Assembly (NCBI GenBank): GCA_042569365.1
Contig: JBHPHK010000002.1
Coordinates: 10,494-74,493 of the forward strand
Length of the DNA: 64,000 nt
Source of the DNA: Patescibacteria group bacterium
GTDB lineage: Bacteria; Patescibacteriota; JAUYIX01; JBHPHK01
Direction: 5' to 3'
Shown here: in pieces, positions 534 to 51,527 of the stretch
Layout: each line of letters begins with the position of its first letter
How positions within the stretch are numbered: the first letter of the stretch is position 1
The notes under the pieces: model-generated
What the model was told of the DNA's origin: nothing
Seen by the model: the letters and a program-made list of their open reading frames with translations, nothing else
Databases searched by the model: none
Made by a program: the position numbers and the translations under genes

Positions 534-534
534 G

Positions 535-3707: not shown

Positions 3708-3736
3708 TTGCAACACTTCTAGAAATCAGTGATTTT

Positions 3737-12746: not shown

Positions 12747-13754
12747 ATGACTAAAACGGATTTGAAAAAAACTTTCCCCACAACCATTTCCAAAAATATT
12801 TCATCTACAGAATCTTGGAAGATTGTTTTTGTTTTGATCGGAATCGCAGTCGTTAGTGTATCTGCAATTCAAATCATCAGAAAACAAATCGGGAGCATTG
12901 ATCCTGGCTCCATTGCGGCACAGATCAAGCCGGCGGAAGGAATTGAAAGCGTATCCGATCTCGACACTGATGGTGACGGTCTTTTTGACGCTAAAGAAGA
13001 GCATCTCGGAACAAATCCCCATAACAGTGATACAGATAACGATGGCTTCACTGACGGTGAAGAGATTTTCAACGGATACAATCCTTTATCTGCTGCAATA
13101 GATGGCAGCCAACAGAATTCAGTGAAGATTTTCGGCGAACCACGGGTGATGTATGAAAATATGCAGCCAACAATGACGAGCGCATCCGCAACTTCTGAAG
13201 CGCAGGCGGGAGTCGGAGGTTTAGGTGGTGAGGATGAGGTGATATTAGATAGCGGAGCGATCTCAGATATGTTGCGTCAGGTAAATACGCTAACTAATTA
13301 TTCGATGCCTGATATTAGCGGCATCCCAATCAATATCACGCAGACTTCCGGTAAAACACCAGTCGAGAACTATATGTACGACGTATTGGGCATATTTTCA
13401 CGCTGGGCTCCTTTTGATGACGAGGTAGATATTTCGAACTTTATTGCAGAGGTACAGCAGGGTAATTATGCGCGCGTCGGCGGAGTCATTGAAGCAAAAG
13501 AAGAAGGCCTGAAGGAATTAGCCGAGATTGAAGTTCCTGAAGAAATGTACGATCTGCACACTCAAGGACTGAAGCTCTTAATTGGCGGTAGCAATTCCTT
13601 GATTGCTTTACAGGGAGTAGGTGGTGCTGGCGGTGAAGAGGAGACGATGACACTCTTTTCTCAGATCCAGTATCTTGTAGACCAGACACAGTCATTAGTG
13701 ACAAATATTTCAGCAATAAGTCGAAATTACGACTTGCCATTTGTCTTTGAATAA
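12747..13754 (+). CDS. Membrane-anchored secreted protein with bacterial TSP3-type calcium-binding repeats
   Basis: N-terminal TM (IVFVLIGIAVVSVSAI). DLDTDGDGLFDAKEEHLGTNPHNSDTDNDGFTDGEE. First gene of the co-directional operon. Confidence 0.6.
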   Translation: MTKTDLKKTFPTTISKNISSTESWKIVFVLIGIAVVSVSAIQIIRKQIGSIDPGSIAAQIKPAEGIESVSDLDTDGDGLFDAKEEHLGTNPHNSDTDNDGFTDGEEIFNGYNPLSAAIDGSQQNSVKIFGEPRVMYENMQPTMTSASATSEAQAGVGGLGGEDEVILDSGAISDMLRQVNTLTNYSMPDISGIPINITQTSGKTPVENYMYDVLGIFSRWAPFDDEVDISNFIAEVQQGNYARVGGVIEAKEEGLKELAEIEVPEEMYDLHTQGLKLLIGGSNSLIALQGVGGAGGEEETMTLFSQIQYLVDQTQSLVTNISAISRNYDLPFVFE

Positions 13755-13760
13755 AATAAA

Positions 13761-14828: not shown

Positions 14829-14860
14829 TTACGTAAACTAGATCTTTTTAAAAATAAGAT

Positions 14861-15403: not shown

Positions 15404-15417
15404 ACAATAAAAAATTC

Positions 15418-17217: not shown

Positions 17218-17246
17218 GAATCAAAAATATTAAGTTAGATTAATTT

Positions 17247-18659: not shown

Positions 18660-18664
18660 TTAAT

Positions 18665-19129
18665 ATGCAATACGAAGTTCCACAATTTATCGAAGTTGAA
18701 GATAAAATTATCGGGCCTTTTACTATTCGCCAGTTCTTGACGATGGTCGTAGGTGCAGTGGCTTTGGCAATACTTTATTTTATGCTTCCGATGATCGCGT
18801 TTATTATCATGGGCATCCCGGTCGTGGTATTTGTGGGAGCATTGGGTTTCTTAAAAATCAATGGACGTCCTTTCTATTTTTTCTTAGCACATTTAACAGG
18901 ATATATTTACCATCCGCGGTTGAGGGTGTGGCGCAGAGACCCAACTCTTCCAGCAGTTAAAGCGAAACAGTCTGACAAGGAAACATTAGAGGCACAAGAA
19001 CGTAAAACTAAGAAACTTCCACGGACAGGCATTGAGCGTTTATCATATATTCTCGATCACGCATCTACGGAAAGCTCAGTATATACAGAGGTGGCTGAAG
19101 AAAAAATCCGCCGCGGTGAAGTTGAATAA
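18665..19129 (+). CDS. VirB3/PrgI-family small membrane protein of the T4SS
   Basis: YEVPQFIEVEDKIIGPFTIRQFL followed by two TM helices. Lies immediately upstream of VirB4, as in Gram-positive conjugation loci. Confidence 0.5.
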   Translation: MQYEVPQFIEVEDKIIGPFTIRQFLTMVVGAVALAILYFMLPMIAFIIMGIPVVVFVGALGFLKINGRPFYFFLAHLTGYIYHPRLRVWRRDPTLPAVKAKQSDKETLEAQERKTKKLPRTGIERLSYILDHASTESSVYTEVAEEKIRRGEVE

Positions 19130-19141
19130 TAATTATTTTTT

Positions 19142-19867
19142 ATGGCAAAGAAAAACACAACACCATTAGTACAGACGATGCAGAGTTCAGGTTTAGCAAA
19201 TAGACCAGGCCAAAAGCAGAGTACTCAGATGTATCTGGATGTCCAAGAGATCCGTGAAGGTACGGTTGTCTTAAAGGATGGCGCATTAAGATCTGTTCTG
19301 TTGGTATCCAGTATGAACTTTGCTCTGAAGTCTTATGAAGAGCAGGAAGCTATAATTCTTGGCTATCAGGGTTTCTTGAACTCTTTGGATTTCCCGATTC
19401 AGATAGTTATGCAATCCCGTGTCTTAGACATTACTGAATACATCGCGAAGCTAGCAGAGCTTGAAAAACAACAATCCAACGAGCTGTTGCGCATCCAAAC
19501 CGCTTCCTACGGAGAATATATTGGTGAGCTTGTGAAGATCTCCAATATCATGAATAAGAACTTTTATATAGTGGTTTCGTTTTCTCCAGTTGGCGCCAAG
19601 AAGGATTCATTTTTTGGTCGTCTCGGTAAGATTATGAATCCAACGCGCGTCATTAAGCAGGAGGCGCAAAAATTTGCCGAATATAAAAGCCAGTTAGAGC
19701 AACGAGTAATGCAAGTGCAGGGAGGACTAGGAGCAGTTGGACTGAAATCGTTAGCCTTAGGAACCCAGGAATTAATCGAGCTGCTTTATCAAAGTTATAA
19801 CACCGAAAATGTTGGGCAAAAGAGCCTGCCAGATATCGGTGAATTAGATTTAGATCAGACAAGCTAA
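19142..19867 (+). CDS. VirB4/TraC-family N-terminal domain, encoded as a separate ORF
   Basis: LDVQEIREGTVVLKDGALRSVLLVSSMNFALKSYEEQEAIILGYQGFLNSLDFPIQI resembles the CagE/TrbE/VirB N-terminal region. Stops 5 nt before the VirB4 ATPase ORF, which is in a different frame. Confidence 0.5.
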   Translation: MAKKNTTPLVQTMQSSGLANRPGQKQSTQMYLDVQEIREGTVVLKDGALRSVLLVSSMNFALKSYEEQEAIILGYQGFLNSLDFPIQIVMQSRVLDITEYIAKLAELEKQQSNELLRIQTASYGEYIGELVKISNIMNKNFYIVVSFSPVGAKKDSFFGRLGKIMNPTRVIKQEAQKFAEYKSQLEQRVMQVQGGLGAVGLKSLALGTQELIELLYQSYNTENVGQKSLPDIGELDLDQTS

Positions 19868-19872
19868 AATAT

Positions 19873-21759
19873 ATGGCTATTTTCAACCGCAACAATCAAA
19901 CAAATCAACAAGCCGGCGTAGTGCCGCCGGCAACTGCTGCTCCTCAGCAAGTAGTAGCTCCAGGTCAAGAGGAGCTAGAGGTTACGCGTGAGCGTGAAAT
20001 TCTTGAAGCAGAGCGCGTTTACCGTGAGGGCATCGCAACCGTCAAGGATATTATCGCGCCTTCTGCAATGAAGGTGTCTGCTGACAAGATCCAAGTCGGA
20101 GATCATCTAGCACGCACACTTTTTGTATATACATACCCGCGCTTTTTGCAGGTCGGATGGCTTTCACCGATCGTCAATATGAATCAGGCGATGGATATCT
20201 CTATGTTTGTTTATCCTGTTTCGTCTGAGAAGATTTTGAAAACCTTGCGTAAGCGGGCCGCACAAATCTCTTCACAAATAAGAATGGATGCTGAAAAAGG
20301 AAAAGTTCGTGATCCTCTGATCGAATCTGCTCAGGAAAACGTTGAGGTGTTGCGCGACCAGTTGATCCAAGGCACAGAACACCTTTATAAATACGCACTG
20401 TACATTACTCTTTATTCTAAGACTGAAGAAGGACTTGATGAGCTCACTGCTGAGATCGAATCTATTTTGGGTGCGCGCATGATTTTGACGAAGCATACTT
20501 CGTTCCAGATGGAACAAGGTTTCAATTCAACATTGCCACTTGGAAATGATGAGCTTGCGGTAACGAACAACATGAACACATCGCCGCTTGCCACATCTTT
20601 CCCATTCATTTCATCAGAACTCACAAGTAATGACGGAATCTTGTACGGCATCAATCGCCACAACAATAGTCTGATTCTTTTTGATCGCTTTAGCTTGGAG
20701 AATGCTAATTCCGTTATCTTCGCTAAATCAGGTGCTGGTAAAAGTTATACGACCAAGCTTGAGGTGTTGCGCAGCATGATGCTGGGAAGCGATGTGATTA
20801 TTATTGACCCAGAAAATGAATATGAACACATGGCGGCAACGGTTGACGGCGCATATTTGAATATTTCATTGGCTTCAGAAAACAGGCTTAATCCATTTGA
20901 CTTGCCGCGTGAAAGCGATGAGCAAAATGCAGATGTCATCCGTGGCGCCGTAACGAACGTGAAAGGCTTGATCAATCTTATGCTCGGGACTCTCAATGCT
21001 GAGGAAGATTCGATTATGGATCGTGCTCTCTTGGAGACATATGCTAAGAAAGACATCAATGAAAATAGTGATCTACGCACAGTAGAATTTCCGACGATGC
21101 AGGACTTGGCCGAGGTCTTAGAGGGTATTGAAGGCGCCGAGAACCTTCTCATTCGCATTAAGAAATACACCGAAGGTACTTTCTCCGGTCTTCTCAATAA
21201 TCCAACCAATGTTGATCTGCGCAGGCAGCTGATCGTATTTAATATTCGTGATCTAGAGGAAGAATTGAGGCCGATTGGAATGTATCTGATCTTAAACTAT
21301 ATCTGGAATATAGTTCGCCAGGAACTTAAGAAACGCATTCTAATCATCGATGAGGCCTGGATTATGATGCAAAATGATGACTCAGCTCGTTTCCTATTTG
21401 GTATGGCAAAACGCGCTCGTAAATATTTCTTGGGAGTAACCACGATCAGCCAGGATGTCTCAGACTTCTTGGCATCGCGTTATGGCAGAGCGGTGGTATC
21501 CAACTCCTCACTTCAATTGCTGTTGAAACAGTCGCCTTCAACAGTCGATCTGATTCAAGAAGTCTTCCATTTGACGGATGAAGAAAAATTCCTGCTTCTC
21601 GAAAGCGATGTCGGAGAGGGGATATTCTTTGCAGGTCTAAAACATGCCGCGATTCACATTGTCGCGTCTTACTCAGAAGACCAAATTATTACTAGTGATC
21701 CAAGACAATTATTACAAATTGAAGATGCCAAACGAGAATTTGCCGAAGCGCAAGGCTAG
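19873..21759 (+). CDS. VirB4-like T4SS ATPase (central and C-terminal AAA domains)
   Basis: Walker A FAKSGAGKSYTTK, Walker B ILIIDEAW, and the C-terminal motif TISQDVSDFL. Confidence 0.85.
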   Translation: MAIFNRNNQTNQQAGVVPPATAAPQQVVAPGQEELEVTREREILEAERVYREGIATVKDIIAPSAMKVSADKIQVGDHLARTLFVYTYPRFLQVGWLSPIVNMNQAMDISMFVYPVSSEKILKTLRKRAAQISSQIRMDAEKGKVRDPLIESAQENVEVLRDQLIQGTEHLYKYALYITLYSKTEEGLDELTAEIESILGARMILTKHTSFQMEQGFNSTLPLGNDELAVTNNMNTSPLATSFPFISSELTSNDGILYGINRHNNSLILFDRFSLENANSVIFAKSGAGKSYTTKLEVLRSMMLGSDVIIIDPENEYEHMAATVDGAYLNISLASENRLNPFDLPRESDEQNADVIRGAVTNVKGLINLMLGTLNAEEDSIMDRALLETYAKKDINENSDLRTVEFPTMQDLAEVLEGIEGAENLLIRIKKYTEGTFSGLLNNPTNVDLRRQLIVFNIRDLEEELRPIGMYLILNYIWNIVRQELKKRILIIDEAWIMMQNDDSARFLFGMAKRARKYFLGVTTISQDVSDFLASRYGRAVVSNSSLQLLLKQSPSTVDLIQEVFHLTDEEKFLLLESDVGEGIFFAGLKHAAIHIVASYSEDQIITSDPRQLLQIEDAKREFAEAQG

Positions 21760-22258
21760 CTACAAAATTGCGCTCAATATCTTAATAATAGTCGTCATTG
21801 TGGCGGGTGTTTTTTGGATCGGTAGTTATTGGATGCAAATGCCGACCGCTTCACTTATGAGCGGCAAGGTTGCTGAAGAAGAAACGATTGAAATGGTCAA
21901 AACTAAAGCACAACAAATAGTCGAGCTTTATTATACATATTCAGCAGGCGATAGTCCGATGTTGCTGCAGAGTCTCCAGACAAGCGCCACAACAAATGCG
22001 AAAAAACAAATCGCAGAGCTCATTGAAACAAGAAAAGAAACGCAAGGCGGCTTTGTGCAGGTAGCAACAGTAAATGAAACCACTGACGTAAACATTCGGG
22101 AGCGTGCCGCAGCCCTCGATTACACTTTGAAGATTCAACATTATCGTCTCGGTGCAGAAGTCCAGGAGCAAGAAATTTCTGCAACCATTCGTCTAGTTAA
22201 TGAGGATGGTGTTTGGCTTCTTGCCGCTCTTTCCCCCAGTGAAATAACATGGCCTTAG
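21725..22258 (+). CDS. Small bitopic protein: N-terminal TM plus a ~140-aa extracytoplasmic domain; possibly a VirB8-like component
   Basis: Start re-set to MPNENLPKRK... at 21725 (the track ORF starts at 21644). TM IALNILIIVVIVAGVFWIG. Overlaps the VirB4 end by 35 nt. The VirB8 assignment rests only on architecture and position. Confidence 0.35.
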   Translation: MPNENLPKRKASYKIALNILIIVVIVAGVFWIGSYWMQMPTASLMSGKVAEEETIEMVKTKAQQIVELYYTYSAGDSPMLLQSLQTSATTNAKKQIAELIETRKETQGGFVQVATVNETTDVNIRERAAALDYTLKIQHYRLGAEVQEQEISATIRLVNEDGVWLLAALSPSEITWP

Positions 22259-24273
22259 AGTCGCTCAAAAATAAATATTGGATTTTTACAATATTGTTGT
22301 TGGTCTTTATGTTTTGTTTTTTTGTGACTTTGGTGGTAATGCCTGAGCCAAGCTTTGGGTCTACTACAGACCAGGAAAACGATGAAATCAATGACACATT
22401 GAGCTGTAATGGAGCAACGGAAGATAGTCTTGGAGCCGATGCGGATGTCAGTGACTACAATGAGCCGGTTGATGTGACGATAGATGAGGGAAGCGATCTG
22501 ATTGAGTACGATTTTGACGCAGATCAGATCTATGACTCGTCTCAAGCTTTCGTCGGAACGCCACAAGCAGAGATCTTTACACCATCTTATTCATTTCCGG
22601 TGGGCGCAGAGGTATTTCTAAATTTAAACCCGCTCTTTTTCAACTTAACGACGACCAATTTCAGCGATCTTTATGTTGCCTGGTTTCGGGATGACTTTCC
22701 GATGCAGGGCGTGGTAGCGGGTGCAGACTTTTCTACTCTGGAGGGTTTAACGGTAACAGGTATTGGTAACCCGGTTCCAGTCTGTAATTCCGTGAGTCGT
22801 TTAGCTGCGCTTGATACAGACGCAGATGGTCTCGATGATGAATGGGAGCGTCGCTACTTTGTTGATCGCAATCTAGCAGAGTCTATCGAAGCGGTTCTGC
22901 CTGATGATGACTTTGACAGCGACGGAGCTTTGCCGATCAATGCGGTGAATACTGCCGGTGAATTCATAACTGTAGTTCCAGCAGTCTTAGGACAAGATTC
23001 TCTGGATGGAAAATATACCAACTTAGAAGAATACGTTTGGGGCACTGATCCAACCAGTCCAGACACAGACGGCGACGGCCACAGAGACGGGGACGACATC
23101 CTGGGAACGGGTCAAATCCATTTCCTTTATATGAACGAAAAGGAATTCGGTGAGGAGGCTACGGTTGTCCGTGCAACAGCAGTCGGTACAGCTATGCAGC
23201 GCACCTCCAATGACGAGCGTTTGATCAAGATCGACAGTACGACCATAGACATCCTTACTACCAATGAAGAAAACCTGGACGGACACATTATCTTAGAAGA
23301 TAAATATATCCTGCCAAATGAATCGGGCGTGGCTAGATTCGAGCCAATCGGAACCGGGGCTCAGGCGAAGACTCTGGAAATCAACTGGTATGTCGATGGA
23401 GACTTGCAGACGGCGCAATCCGGTTTTTCCCAAACAGTCTTGGACTTTAAAATACCAAGCGATAAAACGACAGGAGATTATCTTGTCATAGCGGCGGCGG
23501 CCACTAATCCAACAACCGGTCAAATATCAAGAATAAGCGAAGTGATCCGTATCGGAGAGCCGATGGTGATGAGTTATCTGGCAGATCAAGCTTTTGCAGA
23601 CGAAATTCTGCCAGTTACGGTTAACTTTTTAAATCCAAATGCTCGCCAAGATTACGTTTATAAATGGTTCATTGATAACACATGGCAGGAAGATATTTCT
23701 GGCCCAGGTCGCAATACACTGCCGCTGGAAATAACCAAGCAAATCGAAGGCGATACTATGGATGTGAAAGTGCAGGTCTTCGAGATCAATTCAAGTGAAA
23801 TGGTCATAGAATTGGAAGAAGAAATTCCTGTTGTAGCGCCAAGTGTGGATTTAATACTCGCACCAGAGAGGCCGCAAGCCGGCAGTACAGTCACAGTTAT
23901 AGCAGACCTGACTCGTTTTCCTGGAAATTCTGTAGAATTTGATTGGACTATTGATCGGTTCGAAGTCGAACAAAAACAAAGCAGTCAAATTAGTTTTACA
24001 GCAGGCGAAATAGGAGCTGAGCATATTGTAGAGCTTGGCGTGCAAAACGATAGAGAACACAGTGATTATGCGGAGGCCATTGCGTTTATCGAGATTTACC
24101 CGTCATCGATCAGTAGTTCAAGTTTTTTAAACTCATCGTTCGGGAAAATACTAGCGCGCCTAAATGTTTCCTCACCTATTCCAATATTAACTTTCTGTGG
24201 CATTGTCCTCGTGATTTTCATAAGTCTTCTGGGAATCAAGAAAGCAACTAATCGTCCTTATAATGACGCGTAA
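22249..24273 (+). CDS. Double-anchored (N- and C-terminal TM) surface protein with TSP3 repeats; paralog 1 of 3
   Basis: N-terminal TM. ENDE...SCNGATED. DTDADGLDDEWERRYFVDRNLAESIEAVLPDDDFDSDG. NLEEYVWGTDPTSPDTDGDGHRDGDDILGTGQ. C-terminal TM ILTFCGIVLVIFISLLG. Confidence 0.7.
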   Translation: MALESLKNKYWIFTILLLVFMFCFFVTLVVMPEPSFGSTTDQENDEINDTLSCNGATEDSLGADADVSDYNEPVDVTIDEGSDLIEYDFDADQIYDSSQAFVGTPQAEIFTPSYSFPVGAEVFLNLNPLFFNLTTTNFSDLYVAWFRDDFPMQGVVAGADFSTLEGLTVTGIGNPVPVCNSVSRLAALDTDADGLDDEWERRYFVDRNLAESIEAVLPDDDFDSDGALPINAVNTAGEFITVVPAVLGQDSLDGKYTNLEEYVWGTDPTSPDTDGDGHRDGDDILGTGQIHFLYMNEKEFGEEATVVRATAVGTAMQRTSNDERLIKIDSTTIDILTTNEENLDGHIILEDKYILPNESGVARFEPIGTGAQAKTLEINWYVDGDLQTAQSGFSQTVLDFKIPSDKTTGDYLVIAAAATNPTTGQISRISEVIRIGEPMVMSYLADQAFADEILPVTVNFLNPNARQDYVYKWFIDNTWQEDISGPGRNTLPLEITKQIEGDTMDVKVQVFEINSSEMVIELEEEIPVVAPSVDLILAPERPQAGSTVTVIADLTRFPGNSVEFDWTIDRFEVEQKQSSQISFTAGEIGAEHIVELGVQNDREHSDYAEAIAFIEIYPSSISSSSFLNSSFGKILARLNVSSPIPILTFCGIVLVIFISLLGIKKATNRPYNDA

Positions 24274-26380
24274 ATCAGTAATCATAAGTATATTTTTAAT
24301 AGCTCTTATCGGAGGGTCGTTTTGGCTGTGGTCGCATTACTCTTATGTAAATGGCGAAACGTGGACTGATCACGAAAATGACGAGGCGGATGTACATGCG
24401 GGTGGTCCACACGACATATTTGCGTGTAATGGCGTTCAGGAAGACATGCAGGCACCCACAGGATCATATAACAATTCCTTTCCGCCAGTACAAGTGGATG
24501 CAGATATTGACTGGGATGATCAGGATATAGATATCAACGAAGACTGGATGTCCGATACTCAATTTAATCAAATGATCAGCGAGGGTAGCTTAAGTATGCA
24601 ATCTCCGCAATTGGACATTGCCTTGAGTCCGGTAGCTCCAGAAGAAGGACAAGAAATTGAAGCGACTGCTGCAGTGCAAATGTTGCGTTCGACAGATATG
24701 GAAAGCATGGATACTTATTTTGCCTGGTCGTTGGACGGAGTTTCAATGATGGGTGTTGTGGCCGGGGGCGATCCTTTAGATCTCCTGCCTTCATCTCTGC
24801 GCGACTCCTGCACGACAGTGACGCGCATCCCAGATACAGATGTTGACGGTGACGGCATGGATGATGCGTGGGAAGAGCGCTATTTTGTGCGCCGCAATCT
24901 GGCGGATTCCATCGCAGATGTCTTACCGGAGGACGACGGAGACCTTGATGGCTTTGCGCCTATTGATCTGGTCAATCTTCAGGGTCAACCATTGATCTTA
25001 ACACCGCTACTGAGCACAGCTGCCACTGTGCCGACAGGCACTTTAGATATTCAAGACTCAGCTTACACCAATCTCGAAGAATATATTTGGGGAACTGATC
25101 CAACAGACCCTGATACTGATGATGATGGATACTTGGACGGAGAAGATATTGCCGGACGCGGTCAACTTTCTCTTAAATTCACACCAACCAAAGGCGTTCA
25201 CGATTTCCCGCCGCATCAATTGCGCGCAACAGTCGGAGGAATTTCCTTCCAAACATTGACAGACGACACTCACGACTCTGAAGAATTAGTTAAGTTAGAT
25301 AGTGATGTCAAAGACGTTTTTATCTCAACTGGAGAGAAGCTGGAAGGAATCCTAAATATGCAGCCGGATATAGCGGCGCCTGGAGAGACGGTTACATTTA
25401 CATTCCAACCTCTTCAAACGGATGCTGATCCCGGAGCATTAGCTTACGAATGGCGGTTTGATGGTGAGCCAAAAACTAATCCTCTGCCATCAGCTGAGAT
25501 ATTTGAGTATCTGATTCGTCCTACTGAGCATGAGCCACGCTCCGCAATTGATGTTGATCTGGAGGTGGTCAATCCATCAACGGGGCAATTAACAACTATT
25601 CAAAGTTCATATTTTGTAGCTGAGCCTATCGATCTCGTGCCGATGGATGCTGACATTGTCCCAGGTTCTAGTACAACAGTTAACACATATCTAATATCCG
25701 GCGCAGATCCGAGCGATTTTCTTTTCAAGTGGTATGTCGATAACTCTTTAGATGAAAGAGCTTCGGGGGTTGGTAATAATTCTTTGACATTTGATGTAGA
25801 AGAGGATTTTGGCGGCTATCATCGGGTAAAGCTTGAACTCTTCGACATTAGTAATAGCCGTTTGGTTGGTAGGCAACAAATTGATCTTCCTATCGCCGGT
25901 CCATCTATTGAGCTAACTTTTATTCCTGAAATAGCACAGCCAGGAGAGACGGTGACAGTCGTGGCTGAGGCTGTTAATTTTCCACGAAATCTAGACACCG
26001 ATCAGGACGATATTAATGATGCTTCTCAGATAGAATTTGTATTTGAGCTTGATGGGGCGGAGGTCGGATCAGACATCAACGCAGCAGGAGCAGGGACGAT
26101 GTCGTTTACAGCAGGTAATGATAATGAAATTTATAAGATAAATATTTCGGCAAAAACTACTGGTGAAGAATTTCAATCGGCAGAGGCGATAGGCCAATAT
26201 CAAGTTGGCGCGGGCCCCATTTCATACGAAACCAGTCTTTTTAATCGTTTTACAGCATCGCTTATCCAGAATCCACGAACCTATATTATTTCTGTGATTT
26301 CAATTGGAATTATCACGTTAATATTCTTTCTTGTCTTGCGCAGTATGATGCCGCGTAAAGCAAATAGAAACCAAACTTAA
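24263..26380 (+). CDS. Double-anchored TSP3-repeat surface protein; paralog 2 of 3
   Basis: IFACNGVQED. DTDVDGDGMDDAWEERYFVRRNLADSIADVLPEDDGDLDG. NLEEYIWGTDPTDPDTDDDGYLDGEDIAGRGQ. C-terminal TM. Confidence 0.7.
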   Translation: MTRKSVIISIFLIALIGGSFWLWSHYSYVNGETWTDHENDEADVHAGGPHDIFACNGVQEDMQAPTGSYNNSFPPVQVDADIDWDDQDIDINEDWMSDTQFNQMISEGSLSMQSPQLDIALSPVAPEEGQEIEATAAVQMLRSTDMESMDTYFAWSLDGVSMMGVVAGGDPLDLLPSSLRDSCTTVTRIPDTDVDGDGMDDAWEERYFVRRNLADSIADVLPEDDGDLDGFAPIDLVNLQGQPLILTPLLSTAATVPTGTLDIQDSAYTNLEEYIWGTDPTDPDTDDDGYLDGEDIAGRGQLSLKFTPTKGVHDFPPHQLRATVGGISFQTLTDDTHDSEELVKLDSDVKDVFISTGEKLEGILNMQPDIAAPGETVTFTFQPLQTDADPGALAYEWRFDGEPKTNPLPSAEIFEYLIRPTEHEPRSAIDVDLEVVNPSTGQLTTIQSSYFVAEPIDLVPMDADIVPGSSTTVNTYLISGADPSDFLFKWYVDNSLDERASGVGNNSLTFDVEEDFGGYHRVKLELFDISNSRLVGRQQIDLPIAGPSIELTFIPEIAQPGETVTVVAEAVNFPRNLDTDQDDINDASQIEFVFELDGAEVGSDINAAGAGTMSFTAGNDNEIYKINISAKTTGEEFQSAEAIGQYQVGAGPISYETSLFNRFTASLIQNPRTYIISVISIGIITLIFFLVLRSMMPRKANRNQT

Positions 26381-26386
26381 ATCCAT

Positions 26387-28384
26387 ATGTCGATCAACTG
26401 GAAAAAAAGAATAGCAATCCTTCTCGTAATTTTTCTGGCAGCAGGCAGCGTCAGTTTTTGGAATATGGATTTTACAAACGCGATTTCTGATCCAGAAAAC
26501 GACGAAGACGCCGACATATTTGCGTGTAACGGTGTCAGGGAAGATGCTTTTGGAAAAGCAACTCAGTCGTCTCTAGACGAGCAATGGCCGCCAGCTCATG
26601 TAAGTGGCAAAAACGTTGTCTTTGACTATGATCCAGATGAAATAGCGGGTCGGGCGATGGCAGAAGTAGACGCACCGCGCGCCAGCATTATGACCTCGAG
26701 TCGCATGGGCCAAAACAGCGTCGATGAAAATATTGCCCTATCAGCCTTACCGCTAGTATTTGATACAACTGAAAATGACCAGGGCGATATAAGTTTTTCC
26801 TGGTCTATCGACGGGACGTCAATTATGGGCGTAGTGGCTGGCGCTAGTTCATTAGATTTGCCAGAGAGCGGGGGAGAGCATTGTAGTACAGTTACGCGTA
26901 CGCCAGAAACAGATACAGATGGCGATGGCATGGATGATGCATGGGAACAGCGCTACTTCGTAGATACTGCCGCCTTCGGCTCTATTGCAGAAGTCTTGCC
27001 GGGTGATGATTATGACCAGGACGGCATTATCGCAGATCAGTTTTTAAGTTCAGACTCAGGTCAAGCTCTGATAAACAGTCCGACAACAAGTGTTGGACCT
27101 CCTGGCGACGGCATATTTACAAACTTGGAGGAATATATTTGGGGTACGGATCCAATTGATGCGGACACAGACGATGACGGCTTTATAGACGGAGAAGATA
27201 TTCTTGGTCTTGGTCAGTCGAGCATTGAGCTTGATCCAACAATATTTATTTCAGAAAGCACTAACAGGTTTAACGTTCGTCTGACAATACTAGGCTACTG
27301 GGCGGCGCGTGACAATGAAAACAATCGCATTGCAAAGCTAGATAGCACCGAAGAAGTAGTGATCGTGAGTGAAGAAGAAGACATGGAAGTTAGCTTGCGT
27401 TTAGAAAATCGAACAACACCAAGGCCTGGTGACATTATTAAGGTACAGGCTCAGGTTAGAGACACGCGATCCTTGTCTGACGTCTTAAATTATCGGTGGT
27501 ATGTAAATGGGGTTGAACAAGTTGATGCTAGCGGTGCAGGAGCTCACATTTTGAACTATCCGCTTTCGACAGCGGTCGCGCCAGAGACGAAAGTCGAGAT
27601 CAGAGTAGAAGCCTACAACGAGACCACTGGCGATATTGCAGAAGATACAATATATTTCCAGGTAGGACAGCTTGTAGCATTTGAATACGATCCCGTTAAA
27701 GTCTTTCAGGGAAATGAAATAACTGTCGGAACAATTTTCCCAGACACAATAGAGAAGGACGATTATGTTTTCCGTTGGACGATTGATGGCATCCAGCAAA
27801 AAACCAAATCTGGTTTAGGCCAAGATGAGATTGAGTTTGTGATAGATAAGCCAGAATTTGAGACACATACAGTTGAGCTTGATATCATTCGCCGCTATGA
27901 TAGTACGGTCTTGGCGACAATTAGCGAGGAAATTGGAATAATTTCTCCAAAAGTAACGCTAGTCATTACTCCTGAAGTTATTGCGCCGGGCAGTACAGTC
28001 ACTCTGCAAACTCTGACCCAAGCCTTTGGCTCGACAAATTTAAAATATGAATGGCAAATAGATGGTCAGGATATAGAAGACGCATCATCAAGTATATTGA
28101 GCTTTACGGCTGGAGAGTCTGGAGCGCAGCATATGGCTGAGGTGGTTGTAACAGATTTACGCAGCGATCATTCTATTTCTGCTACTGCGCTAGCGGACAT
28201 ATATGTCAGCAGCACATCTTCCAACGAGGGGAATAGCATCATTAGTCTAGCAGCCAGTCTGCTTGACAGTGCGCCAAAAGTTACGCTTGCCATTACAGGC
28301 TTTATACTGCTTATGATAGCGATCTTTGCTATACTAAGGAGTGTGAGTGCTGGATCTAAACAAACTTCTGTTAAACAATCATAA
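26387..28384 (+). CDS. Double-anchored TSP3-repeat surface protein; paralog 3 of 3
   Basis: IFACNGVRED. ETDTDGDGMDDAWEQRYFVD. NLEEYIWGTDPIDADTDDDGFIDGEDILGLGQ. C-terminal TM ITGFILLMIAIFAIL. Confidence 0.7.
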   Translation: MSINWKKRIAILLVIFLAAGSVSFWNMDFTNAISDPENDEDADIFACNGVREDAFGKATQSSLDEQWPPAHVSGKNVVFDYDPDEIAGRAMAEVDAPRASIMTSSRMGQNSVDENIALSALPLVFDTTENDQGDISFSWSIDGTSIMGVVAGASSLDLPESGGEHCSTVTRTPETDTDGDGMDDAWEQRYFVDTAAFGSIAEVLPGDDYDQDGIIADQFLSSDSGQALINSPTTSVGPPGDGIFTNLEEYIWGTDPIDADTDDDGFIDGEDILGLGQSSIELDPTIFISESTNRFNVRLTILGYWAARDNENNRIAKLDSTEEVVIVSEEEDMEVSLRLENRTTPRPGDIIKVQAQVRDTRSLSDVLNYRWYVNGVEQVDASGAGAHILNYPLSTAVAPETKVEIRVEAYNETTGDIAEDTIYFQVGQLVAFEYDPVKVFQGNEITVGTIFPDTIEKDDYVFRWTIDGIQQKTKSGLGQDEIEFVIDKPEFETHTVELDIIRRYDSTVLATISEEIGIISPKVTLVITPEVIAPGSTVTLQTLTQAFGSTNLKYEWQIDGQDIEDASSSILSFTAGESGAQHMAEVVVTDLRSDHSISATALADIYVSSTSSNEGNSIISLAASLLDSAPKVTLAITGFILLMIAIFAILRSVSAGSKQTSVKQS

Positions 28385-28388
28385 CCAC

Positions 28389-29525
28389 ATGTCAGTTATA
28401 TCCAAAAAAGTATTAATAATTTATGCAATTGCATTTGTCGGCATAATTTGCTTCGCAACAATTAGTTGGGCTCTTAGTACTCAAGATTTTATTACAGTTT
28501 CAGAAAAGAGGATTGGTGAAAGTGATAGGGGAGTGACATGGGAGTTGACAATCAGTAATGGCAAAGAGAAAGCCGACGATTGTACGACGCCAAGTAACGG
28601 TCTACCTCCTGATCTGTATAAAGTAGTTCCGATCAGTTCAGGAGGATCAATACAGCCCCCTGATAAAAGTGGCTTAATTGTTATTGAGGGGGATGATGAA
28701 ATTGTATCCGGTTGGTCTCTGAGTCGTAATGCAATTCAGGCTCATAATGATGATACAGTGAAGGTTTTAGTTCTAGGTGAGTCGGCTAAGTTTTACGTAC
28801 AGATCTATTGTTGGAAAGAAGGAATGGCTACTGTAGATGAATACTTTAACGTTATGAACGATGCTTATTTCTTTGATGGCAATGAAGAAATCAATGACAG
28901 TGTTACTGATAAAAATTCAATGGAAATCGAACTCCTGGGCGTTAATATAAATGACCAAGATGGTGATCAATTAAGGGATGAGGATGAAAAGAGTGATCGT
29001 TGTCCGCACATCTTAATTCCGGACAGTGATGGAGATGGATCAAAAGACGGAAATGACAGTAGTGGTCCTTGTATTAACACCAATTACACTAATAGTCCCA
29101 ATATAATCTACGGCAGTAAAGATGAGTGTACGACGGCAATAGGCGATCGTGCTAATGACGATCCGCCATCTGTCTGCTATGCGCTAAGTGGCATTGATGG
29201 CAAGACTTATTACCGTGAAGGAAAGCCTTCAGGTGTGAATAGTTCTATTGATCCTGAGAGCTTGGATGTAAGCGGATGGGATCCAGACTTAACACCTTTT
29301 AGGGCATTAATTGGCACATATTATAATATTGCAATTTCTTTTGGTGCTTTGGCGGCAATTATAATGATTATTATAGGCGGTTATCAATATGCTACTGCGG
29401 CGGGTAATCAAGCGCGCATATCCCAGGCAAAAACAACTATAAACTATGCATTACTAGGACTTGCAGTTGTGATCTTGGCGGCAGTCTTCTTAAATCTTGT
29501 TAATCCCGCTATCATCGGCGGATAA
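28389..29525 (+). CDS. Membrane protein with an Asp/Cys-rich extracellular domain and a C-terminal VirB2/T4SS-pilin-like two-helix hairpin
   Basis: N-terminal TM. Extracellular DQDGDQLRDEDEKSDRCPHILIPDSDGDGSKDGNDSSGPC. C-terminal hairpin FGALAAIIMIIIGGYQYATAAGNQARISQAKTTINYALLGLAVVILAAVF. Start chosen at the ATG at 28389, after the upstream stop. Confidence 0.45.
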   Translation: MSVISKKVLIIYAIAFVGIICFATISWALSTQDFITVSEKRIGESDRGVTWELTISNGKEKADDCTTPSNGLPPDLYKVVPISSGGSIQPPDKSGLIVIEGDDEIVSGWSLSRNAIQAHNDDTVKVLVLGESAKFYVQIYCWKEGMATVDEYFNVMNDAYFFDGNEEINDSVTDKNSMEIELLGVNINDQDGDQLRDEDEKSDRCPHILIPDSDGDGSKDGNDSSGPCINTNYTNSPNIIYGSKDECTTAIGDRANDDPPSVCYALSGIDGKTYYREGKPSGVNSSIDPESLDVSGWDPDLTPFRALIGTYYNIAISFGALAAIIMIIIGGYQYATAAGNQARISQAKTTINYALLGLAVVILAAVFLNLVNPAIIGG

Positions 29526-29536
29526 ATTATTAAAAT

Positions 29537-30721
29537 ATGCGTTCTCGAATTCTCATTATTATTAGCGTCATCCTTTTGGTCTTAATTTTGGCCGGAGTTG
29601 GTCTGTACCTACTTTTTTCTAACGGTGACGTAACTACACCTGCGGAAAATGAAGGCAATGGTCAGGTAGGTCTGACAGAATATGGAACACAAGCCTTGGC
29701 AGCCCTTGAGGATCCGAAACAACTACCACCCCTGACTAAATTAAATGATCTGCCGAGTAATTATCTGAGCTATGACAATAAAGAGAAGCAGTTGATTTAC
29801 TACAACAATTCAGCTGAGCAAATATTTGCTTCAAATTTGCTGGGATATGGCCAATCTGCGCGTTCTGACGAATTAAGCAATTTGACAGACATGGTTTGGT
29901 CGGCAGATAGAAATAAAGGCTTGCTCTTTTTCCAGGCAAGTGAGGGTAGTCCATTTCGCGCCTATATTTTTGATAACGAAACTCTGGAAACCAAAGAAAT
30001 TAAAGGCTATTACTCGAGTCTTACTTGGGCGAATGACTCGCGTTACCTAATCGGTTATCGTATTGGAGCTGCGGACGATGCAGCTACAGGCATTGTTAAA
30101 ATCAATAGAGAAACATTAGCGGAAGATGTTTTGTACGAAAGCGACCTGGAAGGCGTTCAGGTTCTATCTTACGGCGAAGATATTTTATATTATCTCAAGA
30201 CCGAAAGTCTGCGTCGCAGTAGCTTGTACCTCTTTGATACGTCAGCCAAAAAATCAACAGAACTTATATCCGGCTATTATAATTTTGAACCATTACTTTC
30301 GCCAAATGAAAACAAATTAATCTTTACTGGAAATACAGATGCTAATGATAAGCCTACGCTTCAGTATAAAGATTTAAGTAACGCAAGCAGTAAAGTATTT
30401 AGTCTTAATGTGGAAACATTTGCTAGCAAGTGTGCCTGGAATAGTGCTAGTACGGCAATCTACTGCGCTGTGCCGACAAGTTTGCCGATTAGTCAGACTC
30501 TCTATCAGGATTATCTTGATGCTAAGTTGAACAACTTAGATGCGATCTGGAGAATCAGCAGTGAATCTTTCGATGTAGAACAAATTATACCCGCACAAAA
30601 AATGTATGAAATTGATGCGCGTTATATGGTCGTTGGGAAAGATGACGCAACATTATATTTTATTAATCGTAGGGATGCCTATCACATTTGGGCTGTCAAT
30701 CTACATCTCTTAGAAGTTTAA
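29537..30721 (+). CDS. Membrane-anchored protein with a probable TolB-like beta-propeller domain; last gene of the operon
   Basis: N-terminal TM ILIIISVILLVLILAGVGLYLL. Repeated YxxSLTWANDSRYLI-type PD40-like blocks. Confidence 0.45.
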   Translation: MRSRILIIISVILLVLILAGVGLYLLFSNGDVTTPAENEGNGQVGLTEYGTQALAALEDPKQLPPLTKLNDLPSNYLSYDNKEKQLIYYNNSAEQIFASNLLGYGQSARSDELSNLTDMVWSADRNKGLLFFQASEGSPFRAYIFDNETLETKEIKGYYSSLTWANDSRYLIGYRIGAADDAATGIVKINRETLAEDVLYESDLEGVQVLSYGEDILYYLKTESLRRSSLYLFDTSAKKSTELISGYYNFEPLLSPNENKLIFTGNTDANDKPTLQYKDLSNASSKVFSLNVETFASKCAWNSASTAIYCAVPTSLPISQTLYQDYLDAKLNNLDAIWRISSESFDVEQIIPAQKMYEIDARYMVVGKDDATLYFINRRDAYHIWAVNLHLLEV

Positions 30722-30826: not shown

Positions 30827-32905
30827 TTACTCGAGATGAATCTTCTTGATTTTACGCTCTATGGAAGTTTTTAATCGCTTGTGTTTTGTCAGTAAAGGGT
30901 CCTCCTGCAAAAGAAGATCAACAGATTTCTTTGCACGCTTTAGGAGTGTTACATCACTAAGGTTTGCAAATTTTAGTTCGGGGAGACCGTGTTGACGGGT
31001 GCCGAAGACTTCTCCTGGTCCACGCAGTTCAAGGTCTGTCTCTGCTAGCGCAAACCCATCATTGCTGGTTGTCATAGCATTGAGGCGAGTTTTGGATTCT
31101 CCTGTTGGTTTTTTAGTTGGAACCAAATAACAATAAGATTGCATGTCGCTTCGACCAACTCGACCCCGGAACTGATGAAGCTGAGCTAGGCCAAATCTCT
31201 CGGCGCCTTCGATAAGCATAATGGTCGCATTGGGCACATCAACGCCAACCTCCACGACAGAGGTCGCGACCAAAACATCAAACTGTTTATTCATGAAGTC
31301 TTGCATGATAGATTCTTTTTGGGGAGATTTCATGCGGCCATGAAGTGTTTCAATTCTTGCCTTGGGCAGGCCCTCTTTTCGAAGTAGCTCTACAACAGAT
31401 TCCACAGACTTTGTTTCTAGTTTTTCAGAATCCTCAATCAAAGGACAGACTACAAAAACTTGTTCGCCAGCCTTGATTCTTGTTTGGACAAAATCGTACA
31501 TATCTTTTTTGGCATCAGCTTCAGTGATCAGATGAGTTTCGACAGGTTTTCTGTTCTTAGGGAGCGTCTTAATAAGTGAAAGATCAAGATCGCCATAAAC
31601 AGCGAGTGCCATGGTACGGGGGATTGGAGTGGCGGTCATAGAGAGAAGGTGAGGGAAACGACGCGGAACTTTTTCTTTGAGAAGACGACGCTGCTCAACG
31701 CCAAAACGATGCTGTTCATCAACGATAAAAAGGCCGAGCTGATGGAATTTCACATCAGGTTGGAGCAGGGCATGGGTCCCGATGATTAGGTCGACTGTGC
31801 CGATTTCCAGTTCGCGGAGCATTTGATCGCGCGTAGCTCGTTTATTGATAAAGCGTGCTTCACCACCGACCAATAAGCCAATCGAAAGTTGGAAAGGTGC
31901 GAGCAATAAGCGCAAAGTCTTGAAATGTTGGCGTGCCAGGATTTCAGTGGGCGCTATTAACGCTGTCTGCACTCCGCCACGAACTGTATTGAGGAGTGCG
32001 CCGGCCGCGACAGCAGTTTTACCAGAGCCGACATCGCCTTCGATCAAGCGATTCATAGGATGTTTCTTTTCCATGTCTTGTAAGACCTCCCATAGAGTCT
32101 TCTTTTGATCATCAGTTAGTTCGTAAGGAAGTTGGCTTGTGTAAGAACGCATCAGCGCATTGTCAGTCGGAATCGGAAAAGATTTTTGTTTTTTGAGAAG
32201 CTCTTTGACCTGTTGCGTGTAAAGCTGAATTGTAAATATTTCTTCGAAGGCCAGTCTTTGACGTGCTTCTTGAAGTTTCTTGTCAGTAGTCGGAAAATGA
32301 ACCTCTTTTACGGCTAGGTGATAAGAGGATAGCTTCTGTTGCTTGACGATAGTGTCTGGAAGAAGGTCTTTGAGCTGGGTAGCTAAAGGTAGCGCTTGTT
32401 TGATCCAATAACGTATTTGACGCTGCGTTAGGCCGCGTGTGAGGGGATAGACGGGCGTTATCCGACCCGTATGGGTTTGAGCTGATGTACTCGCCTGAAC
32501 CTTTTCATAAGCCGGGCTCTGGATATAGACACCTCTTTTACCGGTGCTAATTTTCCCGCTTAAAAAAACTTTCGTGCCGGGAGGCAGGTTTTTTGTGACA
32601 TACGGTTGGTTGAACCAAACTATGCGCAGGCGTTCAGTGCCATCTTTGATCCAGCCCTCTTGAATCGTCATGTTGCGTTTCCAGGCGCGACGGTTGTTTA
32701 TCTTTTCTATCTCACCCGTGACGGTGACCTGCTCCGCGATCATAATTTCAGAAAGAGGAGTGGTCTTGGAAAAGTCATCGTAGCGACTTGGATAGTGTGT
32801 CAATAAGTCGGCGACACTTTCAATACCAAGATTGCCAAGAGCAGCGCCTGTTTTTGGGCCAACTCCGGCGATCAGTTCAACGGGATCTGTGAGTTTGAGT
32901 GACAT
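30827..32905 (-). CDS. recG: ATP-dependent DNA helicase RecG
   Basis: N-terminal wedge domain (MSLKLTDPVELIAGVGPKTGAAL), Walker A IEGDVGSGKTAVA, DEQHRFGV, and other helicase motifs. Confidence 0.9.
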   Translation of the reverse strand: MSLKLTDPVELIAGVGPKTGAALGNLGIESVADLLTHYPSRYDDFSKTTPLSEIMIAEQVTVTGEIEKINNRRAWKRNMTIQEGWIKDGTERLRIVWFNQPYVTKNLPPGTKVFLSGKISTGKRGVYIQSPAYEKVQASTSAQTHTGRITPVYPLTRGLTQRQIRYWIKQALPLATQLKDLLPDTIVKQQKLSSYHLAVKEVHFPTTDKKLQEARQRLAFEEIFTIQLYTQQVKELLKKQKSFPIPTDNALMRSYTSQLPYELTDDQKKTLWEVLQDMEKKHPMNRLIEGDVGSGKTAVAAGALLNTVRGGVQTALIAPTEILARQHFKTLRLLLAPFQLSIGLLVGGEARFINKRATRDQMLRELEIGTVDLIIGTHALLQPDVKFHQLGLFIVDEQHRFGVEQRRLLKEKVPRRFPHLLSMTATPIPRTMALAVYGDLDLSLIKTLPKNRKPVETHLITEADAKKDMYDFVQTRIKAGEQVFVVCPLIEDSEKLETKSVESVVELLRKEGLPKARIETLHGRMKSPQKESIMQDFMNKQFDVLVATSVVEVGVDVPNATIMLIEGAERFGLAQLHQFRGRVGRSDMQSYCYLVPTKKPTGESKTRLNAMTTSNDGFALAETDLELRGPGEVFGTRQHGLPELKFANLSDVTLLKRAKKSVDLLLQEDPLLTKHKRLKTSIERKIKKIHLE

Positions 32906-44733: not shown

Positions 44734-44744
44734 TAGGTTTTACT

Positions 44745-51481: not shown

Positions 51482-51527
51482 TTTAAATACTACTTTCTAA
51501 TTTCATTCTTCATTAATCACTAAATCA

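Follow-up and report, generated by a model that had tools for sequence, protein, structure and literature searches.

Three tandem surface-protein paralogs between virB4 and a pilin gene form a conserved family in a Patescibacterial type IV secretion locus

The 64-kb stretch of DNA analysed here (the window) contains a block of co-directional genes, the features of which are listed in Table 1. The three plus-strand ORFs of 674, 705 and 665 aa described in the first-pass annotation, here named paralogs A, B and C, are present where it had placed them. The gene for a VirB4 ATPase lies upstream of them and that for a VirB2-like pilin downstream, within a chromosomal type IV secretion system (T4SS) locus of Patescibacterial kind, a setting that the annotation had missed. 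Orthologues of the TrsD/TraC-like gene upstream of virB4 carry PF26593 (TraC-like), and the small protein encoded between virB4 and A is found in some related loci only. The pilin gene starts with an ATG at 28389 directly downstream of C, and its product also matches the NCBIfam Mbov_0395 pilin-like model (E 2e-4). T4SSs of the class ABY1 adjoin recG and comF (PMC12102498). Both genes lie near the trio, which suggests that the source is probably a member of ABY1.

Table 1. Features of the T4SS locus and subdivisions of paralog C (positions in the window).
Feature	Coordinates	Strand	Evidence
First gene of co-directional block, N-terminally anchored, two true TSP3_bac repeats	12747..13754	+	TSP3_bac, 5.8e-12, 45.7 bits
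PrgI/VirB3-like membrane protein	18665..19129	+	Pfam PrgI 7.6e-9
TrsD/TraC-like protein, resembles VirB4 N-terminal region	19142..19867	+	NCBIfam TrsD 4.9e-5, below cutoff (23 vs 200 bits)
VirB4-type T4SS ATPase	19873..21759	+	Pfam P-loop_TraG 7.1e-27, AAA_10, DUF87, CagE_TrbE_VirB
204-aa protein with an N-terminal anchor, encoded between virB4 and A	21644..22258	+	ORF, related loci
Paralog A, 674 aa	22249..24273	+	ORF list, collinear alignment, motifs; start fixed by L003 orthologue
Paralog B, 705 aa	24263..26380	+	Same architecture as A; Cys55/Cys183
Paralog C, 665 aa	26387..28384	+	Same architecture as A and B; Cys47/Cys166
C residues 1-32: basic n-region, 17-residue hydrophobic core, TNA|IS	26387..26482	+	-3/-1 pattern; orthologue AxA sites
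C residues 33-290: membrane-distal head	26483..27256	+	Conservation, pLDDT, TSP3_bac in relatives, Cys co-variation
C residues 291-608: long beta-hairpin and three beta-sandwich repeats	27257..28210	+	Predicted fold, Hoc profile match
C residues 609-665: low-confidence linker, amphipathic helix 617-627 (ASLL..P), TM helix 632-657, basic tail	28211..28381	+	Hydropathy, AlphaFold
VirB2-like pilin domain (C-terminal ~65 aa) with ~300-aa N-terminal extension	28389..29525	+	Pfam T4SS_pilin 7.1e-7
Conserved last cluster gene, 394 aa, N-terminal TM	29537..30721	+	Faint PD40/Tricorn_N (beta-propeller) in orthologues

The ATG starts and the N-terminal hydrophobic segments of all three proteins are the same in L003, a 76%-identical relative. 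The NCBI calls for A and C begin later (P0039, 654 aa, and P0001, 639 aa), and these starts would remove the N-terminal hydrophobic segment. It had been claimed that each start codon overlaps the preceding stop. This holds for the upstream gene and A (10 nt) and for A and B (11 nt); between the stop of B and the start of C, however, there are 6 nt of spacer. In the sister loci genes overlap by 1-7 nt. A consensus scan for promoters and terminators found sites no more numerous than in shuffled sequence and did not help to delimit the operon.

A, B and C align collinearly over their whole length; they are 32-33% identical and share 100+ invariant columns. Profile scores of paralog against paralog correspond to E-values of 1e-67 and below, which places their homology far beyond chance. 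The shared motifs are homologous and collinear, as had been supposed: all three proteins contain ENDE.D, CNG..ED, W..D...GVVAG, C..V.R...D.D.DG.DD.WE.RYFV, TNLEEY.WGTDP.D.DTD.DG..DG.DI.G.GQ and SFTAG, and an insert, DVHAGGPHD, before the CNG motif is specific to B. The earlier description of the trio as tandem homologous surface proteins with one common architecture, tightly packed and co-directional, is in good agreement with these results. No other ORF in the window matches most of the length of their head.

The membrane-distal head of C consists of the acidic ENDE/CNG peptide, an Ig-like domain (D0) ending in GVVAG, Cys166..R171, and three DxDxDG loops at residues 176, 208 and 260 with TNLEEYIWGTDP between them. 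Three such loops are found in each of the paralogs, alignments of 17-30 relatives show no variation at their Asp and Gly positions, and these TSP3-type loops probably bind calcium. Conservation is highest in the head (52% among paralogs, 87% to orthologues), and the proteins as a whole are very acidic, with a net charge of about -75 to -88. The loops had been annotated as TSP3 repeats. The Pfam model PF18884 TSP3_bac, a 22-residue repeat HMM with a gathering score of 25 bits, matched the trio in C only and under threshold (E 0.98, 9.8 bits), but 7 of the 17 relatives matched at E <= 0.01, with a best E of 1.4e-7. The assignment therefore finds support in the invariant loops and in the relatives, whereas the trio itself stays below threshold. 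A proposed link to the first gene of the block (12747-13754) held in part: its TSP3_bac match is real (5.8e-12), but what it has in common with the trio is only a TSP3 repeat of ~33 residues, and we rejected it as a fourth member of the family on these grounds.

The ectodomains contain exactly two cysteines, both in the acidic head (Cys53/Cys179 in A; see Table 1 for B and C). Across the family the two are either both present (32 sequences) or both absent (9 sequences), with no mixed case, and the pair probably forms a disulfide staple. Contrary to what had been assumed, not every family member keeps the Cys of the CNG motif: sister-clade orthologues of the C position have a Tyr instead. AlphaFold2 modelled full-length C with a mean pLDDT of 79.9, residues 140-290 reaching 86-94. 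The head modelled alone (C residues 36-296, 13-sequence alignment) gave a pLDDT of 58, which was too poor for a fold search, and we used the full-length model.

Below the head, C is predicted to form a beta-hairpin (residues 294-327) and three Ig-like repeats of ~90 residues each (334-425, 431-517 and 522-607), which carry a Y.W..DG motif. Pfam PKD, Ig_3 and Big_2 matched the trio at sub-threshold E-values of 0.008-0.1. The family profile, in contrast, matched phage T4 Hoc (5vf3_Z) over profile positions 349-620 with an E-value of 7.6e-10, and in the fold search the predicted beta-sandwiches of C matched Ig, FN3 or macroglobulin domains, RB49 Hoc being among the fold matches of the stalk. The repeats called Ig-like in the first-pass annotation thus fall short of the Pfam thresholds, but the Hoc match and the predicted fold are consistent with that reading.

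Hydropathy analysis shows a single hydrophobic segment near either end of each protein, with Kyte-Doolittle values over 19 aa of 2.1-3.1 at the N-terminus and 2.65-2.79 at the C-terminus, where a basic tail comes after it. From this it had been proposed that the proteins are anchored at both ends. The N-terminal segments comprise 17-20 hydrophobic residues, after which positions -3 and -1 are occupied by small residues. Sister-clade orthologues have textbook AxA signal-peptidase sites immediately ahead of the acidic motif, where the orthologue sequences read AVA|Q, ANA|Q, SRA|A, SIA|K, ALA|V and ARA|I. These sites favour a cleaved Sec signal and a single C-terminal anchor as the more likely topology over the double anchor. 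In C, residues 1-32 probably act as a Sec signal peptide, but they may instead stay uncleaved as a signal anchor.

The C-terminal hydrophobic segment does appear to span the membrane, being modelled as a helix at C residues 632-657 with the basic tail after it. In A the corresponding helix lies at about 645-664, and the tail reads KKATNRPYNDA. Helix and tail are present in all close members. We also inspected 57 hits of the representative search, the great majority of which contain the head core, and most of these have helix and tail as well. Members of one five-paralog array (L006) keep the juxtamembrane helix and have no C-terminal TM segment, which means that not all of the family is tethered to the membrane. 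No [LIV]PxT/S/A-G/A/S motif was found near the C-terminus of A, B or C.

The trio order was found in six other metagenomic loci, and two more distant loci contain five paralogs. L002, L003 and L004/L005 have the order VirB4, (small protein), A, B, C, pilin and a ~400-aa protein with a faint PD40-like match, and the partial loci L001, L007 and L041 agree with this order. All four complete close loci contain three copies. The five-member arrays, L006 and L039/L040, occupy the same place as the trio, and the core is present in every one of their members. In the whole set of fetched Patescibacterial loci, only trio or five-member arrays contained ORFs that match most of the head length. One further long head match, in the non-Patescibacterial L032, covers profile positions 109-241, mainly the TSP3-repeat part.

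Core-bearing sequences form about 85 clusters at 50% identity. Matches in the representative library to profile positions of about 177-283 were mostly TSP3-repeat proteins. A scan of GTDB genomes that used the family alignment and took DGMDD.WE and DTD.DG..D as its key motifs yielded no new trio locus and returned mostly unrelated TSP3-repeat proteins from many phyla; a word-indexed homologue search with a 30-sequence profile was likewise swamped by TSP3-repeat proteins and added no members or names. No Pfam or NCBIfam family spans a whole trio protein and no source names the family. In the model Saccharibacterial T4SS, peptidase and lysozyme homologues are encoded downstream of virB4 instead (PMC12102498). 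Together with the rarity of the family, this suggests a lineage-specific accessory rather than a core part of the T4SS.

In order to assess the age of the triplication we compared the trio with a sister clade. An HMM of the sister-clade B proteins scored window B with 404 bits, against 249 for A and 241 for C, and the sister-clade C HMM scored window C with 370 bits, against 313 and 271 for the other two. Mean BLAST bits against window A/B/C were 209/182/184 for position A, 178/280/202 for position B and 212/179/248 for position C. L041_A and L041_B had window A and window B, respectively, as best match. Positional orthology to the sister clade is thus strong for B, clear for C and weak for A. 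The order and identity of A, B and C are kept between clades that are only ~30% identical, which indicates that their divergence is old and not ongoing, and by these comparisons the triplication is ancient. An NJ tree groups window A, B and C together. Because the clade HMMs and BLAST scores show positional orthology, we read this grouping as long-branch or compositional attraction, but we still weigh it as evidence against our view. The tree and the weak orthology of A may also reflect some concerted evolution, or independent triplication in the two clades. Between the five-member arrays L006 and L039 no positional orthology was detectable.

For the dN/dS analysis, which had been proposed for the paralogs, orthologues were compared. 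The trio orthologues gave dN values of 0.151-0.165 with saturated dS, which points to purifying selection; for comparison, dN was 0.050 for VirB4 and 0.287 for the small neighbour. As dS is saturated at 76% amino-acid identity, we give no dN/dS figure.

Taken together, A, B and C belong to a conserved, unnamed family that, in the loci recovered, lies between virB4 and the pilin gene in fixed sets of three or five and has a predicted calcium-loop head on an Ig stalk. Patescibacterial T4SSs have been described as chromosomal and MPF-FATA-like, with VirB2 pilins and with no PrgB-type adhesin detected (PMC12102498). A T4SS is essential for epibiotic growth, life on a host cell, in a Saccharibacterium (PMC10633639), the one genetically tractable species. 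Outside the membrane, the Patescibacterial T4SS parts recognised so far are pilins. To our knowledge, these systems usually have no relaxases.

The explanation that we favour is that A, B and C are co-expressed extracellular accessory subunits of the chromosomal T4SS, probably co-assembling; we regard it as fairly probable. The trio would then probably be an undescribed outer part of the T4SS, its function being suggested by its context. This T4SS is related to the monoderm conjugation class MPF-FATA and carries a pilin gene. Each protein would be exported by Sec, with its N-terminal hydrophobic segment most likely cleaved, and would be held in the cytoplasmic membrane by the C-terminal TM helix with the short basic tail in the cytoplasm. 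The stalk, consisting of the beta-hairpin and the three Hoc/PKD-like Ig domains, would push the very acidic head off the membrane. Beside the T4SS translocon, A, B and C would assemble with one another into a wall-spanning collar or stalk that could support the VirB2-like pilus, make a conserved contact with the host cell surface, or both. Mutual assembly appears most likely because virB4 and the pilin gene always enclose all three paralogs in an unchanged order, and because the three are under purifying selection, with the head most conserved. In a stronger version, the trio and the five-member arrays would form a previously unrecognised extracellular complex of a monoderm T4SS, an obligatory hetero-oligomer stabilised by calcium, which spans the wall or S-layer, guides or carries the pilus and makes the conserved contact with the host cell that these epibionts need. 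This version is doubtful; if true, the complex would be the lineage-specific counterpart of the diderm outer core or of a VirB5 tip.

The first-pass annotation had interpreted the trio as a diversifying family of adhesins or receptors, held to the membrane at both ends, whose variable linkers fit different hosts. The paralogs are only ~32% identical outside the motifs, the hydrophobic segments at both termini have a positive-inside charge distribution, similarity to phage Hoc and to adhesion molecules is seen in the Ig-like repeats, and combinations of TSP3 and Ig domains are common in adhesins. In addition, the tandem arrays of variable pilins found in T4SS loci of Patescibacteria have been read as host-range adaptation (PMC12102498). 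A family diversifying in this manner is nevertheless unlikely, as the trio is an old triplet whose order and identity are fixed across distant clades, its dN is far below the saturated dS, its copy number is three in every complete close locus, and it is the distal head that is most conserved while the Ig stalk varies more. The AxA cleavage sites of the orthologues also speak against the N-terminal anchor.

That the trio has no relation to secretion, and consists of generic envelope proteins (S-layer, wall-associated or calcium-buffering) that happen to neighbour a T4SS, we consider quite unlikely. None of the described T4SS components in Pfam and NCBIfam (VirB1-11, Prg, Trs, Tcp) matched the trio and no solved T4SS component was among its fold and sequence matches, extreme acidity and calcium-binding motifs are typical of surface-layer and matrix proteins, and the window contains other TSP3 and Ig-type envelope genes. 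However, the position between virB4 and the pilin gene is kept in every recovered locus, the five-paralog arrays included, the genes overlap or abut, and neither the window nor the fetched Patescibacterial loci contain a core-bearing ORF outside such arrays. The C-termini could, alternatively, act as a new tripartite sorting signal, [AS]-L-x3-P followed by the TM helix and the basic tail, so that the mature proteins become wall-linked or polymerise into a pilus-like fibre. The layout is common to nearly all members and resembles in general that of LPXTG and PEP-CTERM-type signals. The motif itself is loose and weakly conserved, though, no NCBIfam C-terminal sorting-domain model matches the trio, and LPXTG is missing from the C-termini. 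No sortase was found among window ORFs of >=150 aa up to position 58262, and the L006 members keep the juxtamembrane helix without a TM segment, all of which makes a sorting signal very unlikely.

As probable extracellular accessory subunits, the trio proteins provide concrete candidates for the part of the T4SS that is missing on the outside or at the contact with the host in at least one large lineage, probably ABY1. They also offer defined motifs for mutation, namely the two cysteines, the DxDxDG loops, GVVAG and the invariant Arg. No new principle is established by them: the family has a restricted distribution and is built from common domain types, and its proposed function is deduced.

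Among the nearest known parallels are surface adhesins and accessory proteins of Gram-positive conjugative T4SSs, such as PrgA, PrgB and PrgC of pCF10. These are likewise encoded within a monoderm-type (MPF-FATA-like) T4SS cluster and are Sec-exported, surface-displayed, multi-domain proteins with Ig-like modules, presumed to act at the cell-cell interface. The trio differs from them in having no sequence or family match to them, a C-terminal TM helix in place of an LPXTG wall anchor, three or five obligatory paralogs in fixed order, and a Ca-loop-rich head instead of a polymer- or glucan-binding adhesin domain. With the TSP3_bac proteins CglD and MtsD of Myxococcus the trio shares DxDxDGxxD loops interleaved with GTDP, strong acidity and an extracellular location. 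It has only three loops, however, set in a unique head with GVVAG, Cys..R and WE.RYF, and its remainder is unrelated to CglD and MtsD (13.7-28 bits vs NCBIfam cutoffs of 400-800). Phage T4 Hoc resembles the stalk in its three tandem ~90-residue beta-sandwich repeats with the Y.W..DG strand motif. Hoc is without the TSP3 head, TM anchor and T4SS link of the trio, and the likeness is confined to a generic Ig-like stalk.

The tandem VirB2-like pilins of Patescibacteria are, like the trio, tandem divergent paralogs (~25-30% identity) in the same type of locus. They adjoin the trio, and both are likely to belong to the same extracellular apparatus (PMC12102498, PMC10633639), although the pilins are unrelated to the trio in sequence and fold and much smaller (~120 aa vs ~680 aa). 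In contrast to the tandem pilin arrays elsewhere, only one pilin gene is present in the window, and its product is a fusion with a large N-terminal domain.

The three tandem paralogs A, B and C aligned collinearly from end to end in a three-way alignment, with 32–33% identity and more than 100 invariant columns. All motifs listed in the first-pass annotation were found in this alignment (ENDE.D, CNG..ED, W..D...GVVAG, C..V.R, SFTAG, the D.D.DG.DD.WE.RYFV block and TNLEEY.WGTDP.D.DTD.DG..DG.DI.G.GQ), confirming that the trio are homologous paralogs. The paralog-against-paralog scores equal E-values of ≤1e-67 (against 5.8 billion sequences), which excludes chance similarity. The public annotation of this genome begins A (654 aa) and C (639 aa) at internal Met codons, whereby the export signal would be lost. 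Judging from sequence conservation, the long N-termini are correct, as L003, a relative with 76–77% identity, shares both the ATG starts and the N-terminal hydrophobic segments and thus backs the upstream ATGs of A (22249) and C (26387). Each start was said to overlap the preceding stop; this is seen for the upstream gene and A (10 nt) and for A and B (11 nt), but the B stop and C start are 6 nt apart.

The co-directional block holding the trio (12747–30721) is a type IV secretion system (T4SS) locus. It is flanked by housekeeping genes including ksgA, polyprenyl synthetase, uvrD and recG and is therefore chromosomal; farther along lie a comFC-like gene, recX and a type IV pilus cluster. The source organism is listed as "Patescibacteria group bacterium". 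The arrangement matches that published as typical of class ABY1, in which T4SS loci adjoin recG and comF (PMC12102498). Patescibacterial T4SSs are MPF-FATA-like and pilin-bearing, mostly without a relaxase, and a survey detected no PrgB-type adhesins in them (PMC12102498). The cultivated Saccharibacterium Southlakia cannot grow as an epibiont without its T4SS (PMC10633639).

Features of the T4SS locus and related loci (nucleotide positions) and of the model of C (residues)
Feature	Position	Strand	Basis or remark
PrgI/VirB3-like protein	18665-19129	+	Pfam/NCBIfam scan
TrsD/TraC-like protein	19142-19867	+	Pfam/NCBIfam scan
VirB4 ATPase	19873-21759	+	P-loop_TraG 7e-27
Small anchored protein	21644-22258	+	directly upstream of A
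Paralog A, 674 aa	22249-24273	+	ORF
Paralog B, 705 aa	24263-26380	+	ORF
Paralog C, 665 aa	26387-28384	+	ORF
VirB2-type T4SS pilin domain protein	28389-29525	+	PF18895 7e-7, C-terminal ~65 residues
Conserved ~400-aa gene	29537-30721	+	last of block
recG	30827-32905	-	adjoins T4SS locus
comFC-like phosphoribosyltransferase with double zinc ribbon	38621-39319	-	near T4SS locus
recX	39427-39903	+	near T4SS locus
L006 five-paralog array	L006:6158-20620		
C model: N-terminal helix	residues 4-26		AlphaFold2
C model: part of the head	residues 140-290		AlphaFold2, pLDDT 86-94
C model: long beta-hairpin	residues 294-327		AlphaFold2
C model: three beta-sandwiches	residues 334-425, 431-517, 522-607		AlphaFold2
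C model: short helix	residues 617-627		AlphaFold2
C model: TM helix	residues 632-657		AlphaFold2

Close full-length relatives of the trio are few and none has a name. In three other metagenomic loci (L002, L003 and L004/L005) the order is VirB4, (small protein), three genes of 660–710 aa, pilin and a ~400-aa gene with faint PD40 or Tricorn_N matches, and the truncated loci L001, L007 and L041 show the same order. Two more distant Patescibacterial T4SS loci, L006 and L039/L040, carry five tandem genes of 760–1330 aa at the place of the trio, all with the family core (the head region of the profile), and no positional orthology was detectable between the L006 and L039 arrays. The C-terminal TM helix is missing from the L006 proteins, which retain an amphipathic helix at this end. 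When 1.84 billion representatives were searched exhaustively by profile, 74 proteins scored E < 1e-30; about 85 distinct representatives bear the head core over >120 profile positions, and most of the top ones inspected show a signal at the N-terminus and a TM helix at the C-terminus. Across the Patescibacterial loci retrieved, ORFs matching the head over most of its length lay in these arrays only; the non-Patescibacterial L032 gave one long match, mainly over the TSP3 (thrombospondin type 3) repeats. Within the window only the trio bears the core. The first gene of the block (12747–13754), described earlier as carrying the same TSP3 motif, does have one ~33-residue repeat in common with the trio, and nothing beyond it. 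The family is without a name in Pfam, NCBIfam and the source annotation, and we found no description of it in the papers that we retrieved. Its domains are of common types, and surface proteins associated with T4SSs are an established concept.

The proteins had been proposed to be anchored at both ends. The C-terminal hydrophobic segments (Kyte-Doolittle 2.65–2.79), followed by Lys/Arg-rich tails, fit a TM anchor with a cytoplasmic tail. At the N-terminus a cleaved signal peptide seems more likely than a second anchor: a basic n-region and 17–20 hydrophobic residues are followed by small residues at −3 and −1, and the corresponding segments of the sister clade, more distant three-paralog relatives, end AVA|Q, ANA|Q, SRA|A, SIA|K, ALA|V and ARA|I directly before the conserved acidic motif. 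If the signal is cleaved, the trio would be type I proteins whose heads form the membrane-distal part.

The AlphaFold2 model of C, run on a 17-sequence alignment, has a mean pLDDT of 79.9. Fold searches with C matched only generic Ig, FN3 and macroglobulin arrays, phage Hoc among them, and the family profile matches T4 Hoc over three Ig-like repeats (E 7.6e-10). Each head holds three DxDxDG loops; TSP3_bac (PF18884) is matched in 7 of 17 relatives but stays below threshold in the trio itself. The ectodomains are strongly acidic (Asp+Glu 112–122 vs. Lys+Arg 34–40) and, in the three-paralog clades, have exactly two cysteines, those of "CNG" and "C..V.R". Where both columns are aligned, 32 of 41 family sequences have both, nine have neither and none is mixed. 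This is suggestive of an intramolecular disulfide that would staple the acidic peptide of the N-terminus onto the head, short of proof since the losses amount to only one or two independent events.

Matches to the sister clade follow gene position. Its B-position HMM scores 404 bits with B of the window vs. 249 and 241 with the other two, and its C-position HMM 370 bits with C vs. 313 and 271. BLAST mean scores agree, though less strongly for A (209 vs. 182 and 184), and the best window matches of L041_A and L041_B are A and B. Contrary to positional orthology, a neighbour-joining tree clusters A, B and C together, which we regard as a long-branch artefact but still count as contrary evidence.

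The family had also been read as diversifying adhesins or receptors, which we consider unlikely. Comparison of the window with L003 gave dN values of 0.165 (A), 0.151 (B) and 0.165 (C), about three times that of VirB4 (0.050) and about half that of the small neighbouring protein (0.287); with dS saturated, this indicates purifying selection overall. The most conserved region is the head with its Cys pair and TSP3 loops (identity 52% between paralogs, 87% between orthologues, 44% to the sister clade; Ig repeats 22–31%, 67–74% and 26–30%), the opposite of what is expected of a diversifying, host-matching adhesin. A variable repertoire also fits poorly with fixed sets in constant order and position. 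Instead, the fixed sets of three or five paralogs, their constant order, tight or overlapping junctions and constant place between virB4 and the pilin gene, and purifying selection that acts most strongly on the distal head together fit stoichiometric, co-assembling extracellular subunits of the T4SS, the reading that we consider most likely. Once assembled, A, B and C might form a stalk or collar that spans the wall, a conserved module for contact, or both; co-assembly, calcium dependence and any pilus or host interaction are inferences. That they are envelope proteins unrelated to the T4SS seems slightly less probable still than the adhesin repertoire, and a new C-terminal sorting signal quite improbable; each of these three readings clashes with at least one observation. 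The chief value of the family lies in offering a specific candidate for the extracellular side of Patescibacterial T4SSs.

The pilin-domain protein is 378 aa long, with the VirB2-like domain confined to its last ~65 residues, vs. 118–236 aa in related loci. The ~300-aa extension at its N-terminus bears a separate signal or anchor, several Cys and a TSP3-like loop, DSDGDGSKDGND; the whole protein may represent the fusion of a pilin with a surface domain, or else a wrongly joined gene call. The ~400-aa gene always follows the pilin gene (orthologues in L001, L002, L004 and L039) and is another uncharacterised, conserved member of this T4SS module; it carries a TM segment at the N-terminus, and its PD40, Tricorn_N or Dpp5-like (beta-propeller) matches are no more than faint. 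Also within the block, a 180-aa product (14861–15403, +) has an acidic N-terminal half, a Lys/Ala-rich repeat region and, at the C-terminus, a TM segment whose last residue is Cys, with only sub-threshold matches (RIFIN, TraG_N). A few kb upstream of the block, three cell-wall hydrolase genes (2578–5110, −, and 7689–8663, +) encode a CHAP-domain protein, an M23 peptidase with LysM and a G5 + DUF348 + lytic transglycosylase-like DPBB protein, which could supply the VirB1-like function absent from the locus itself.

Elsewhere in the window, three large ORFs follow one another at 41705–49409 (+); those of 429 and 579 aa gave weak SdrD_B-like matches only and that of 1554 aa no Pfam match. The type IV pilus cluster (50264–58262, +) encodes PilM, PilN, PilO, a PilB-type ATPase, PilC (T2SSF) and a prepilin peptidase. 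An SOS/damage-tolerance group (36–2537) comprises an S24 LexA/UmuD-like peptidase, a Y-family polymerase (IMS) and an SRAP protein, the last encoded on the opposite strand; L005 too has an S24 peptidase, beyond recG.
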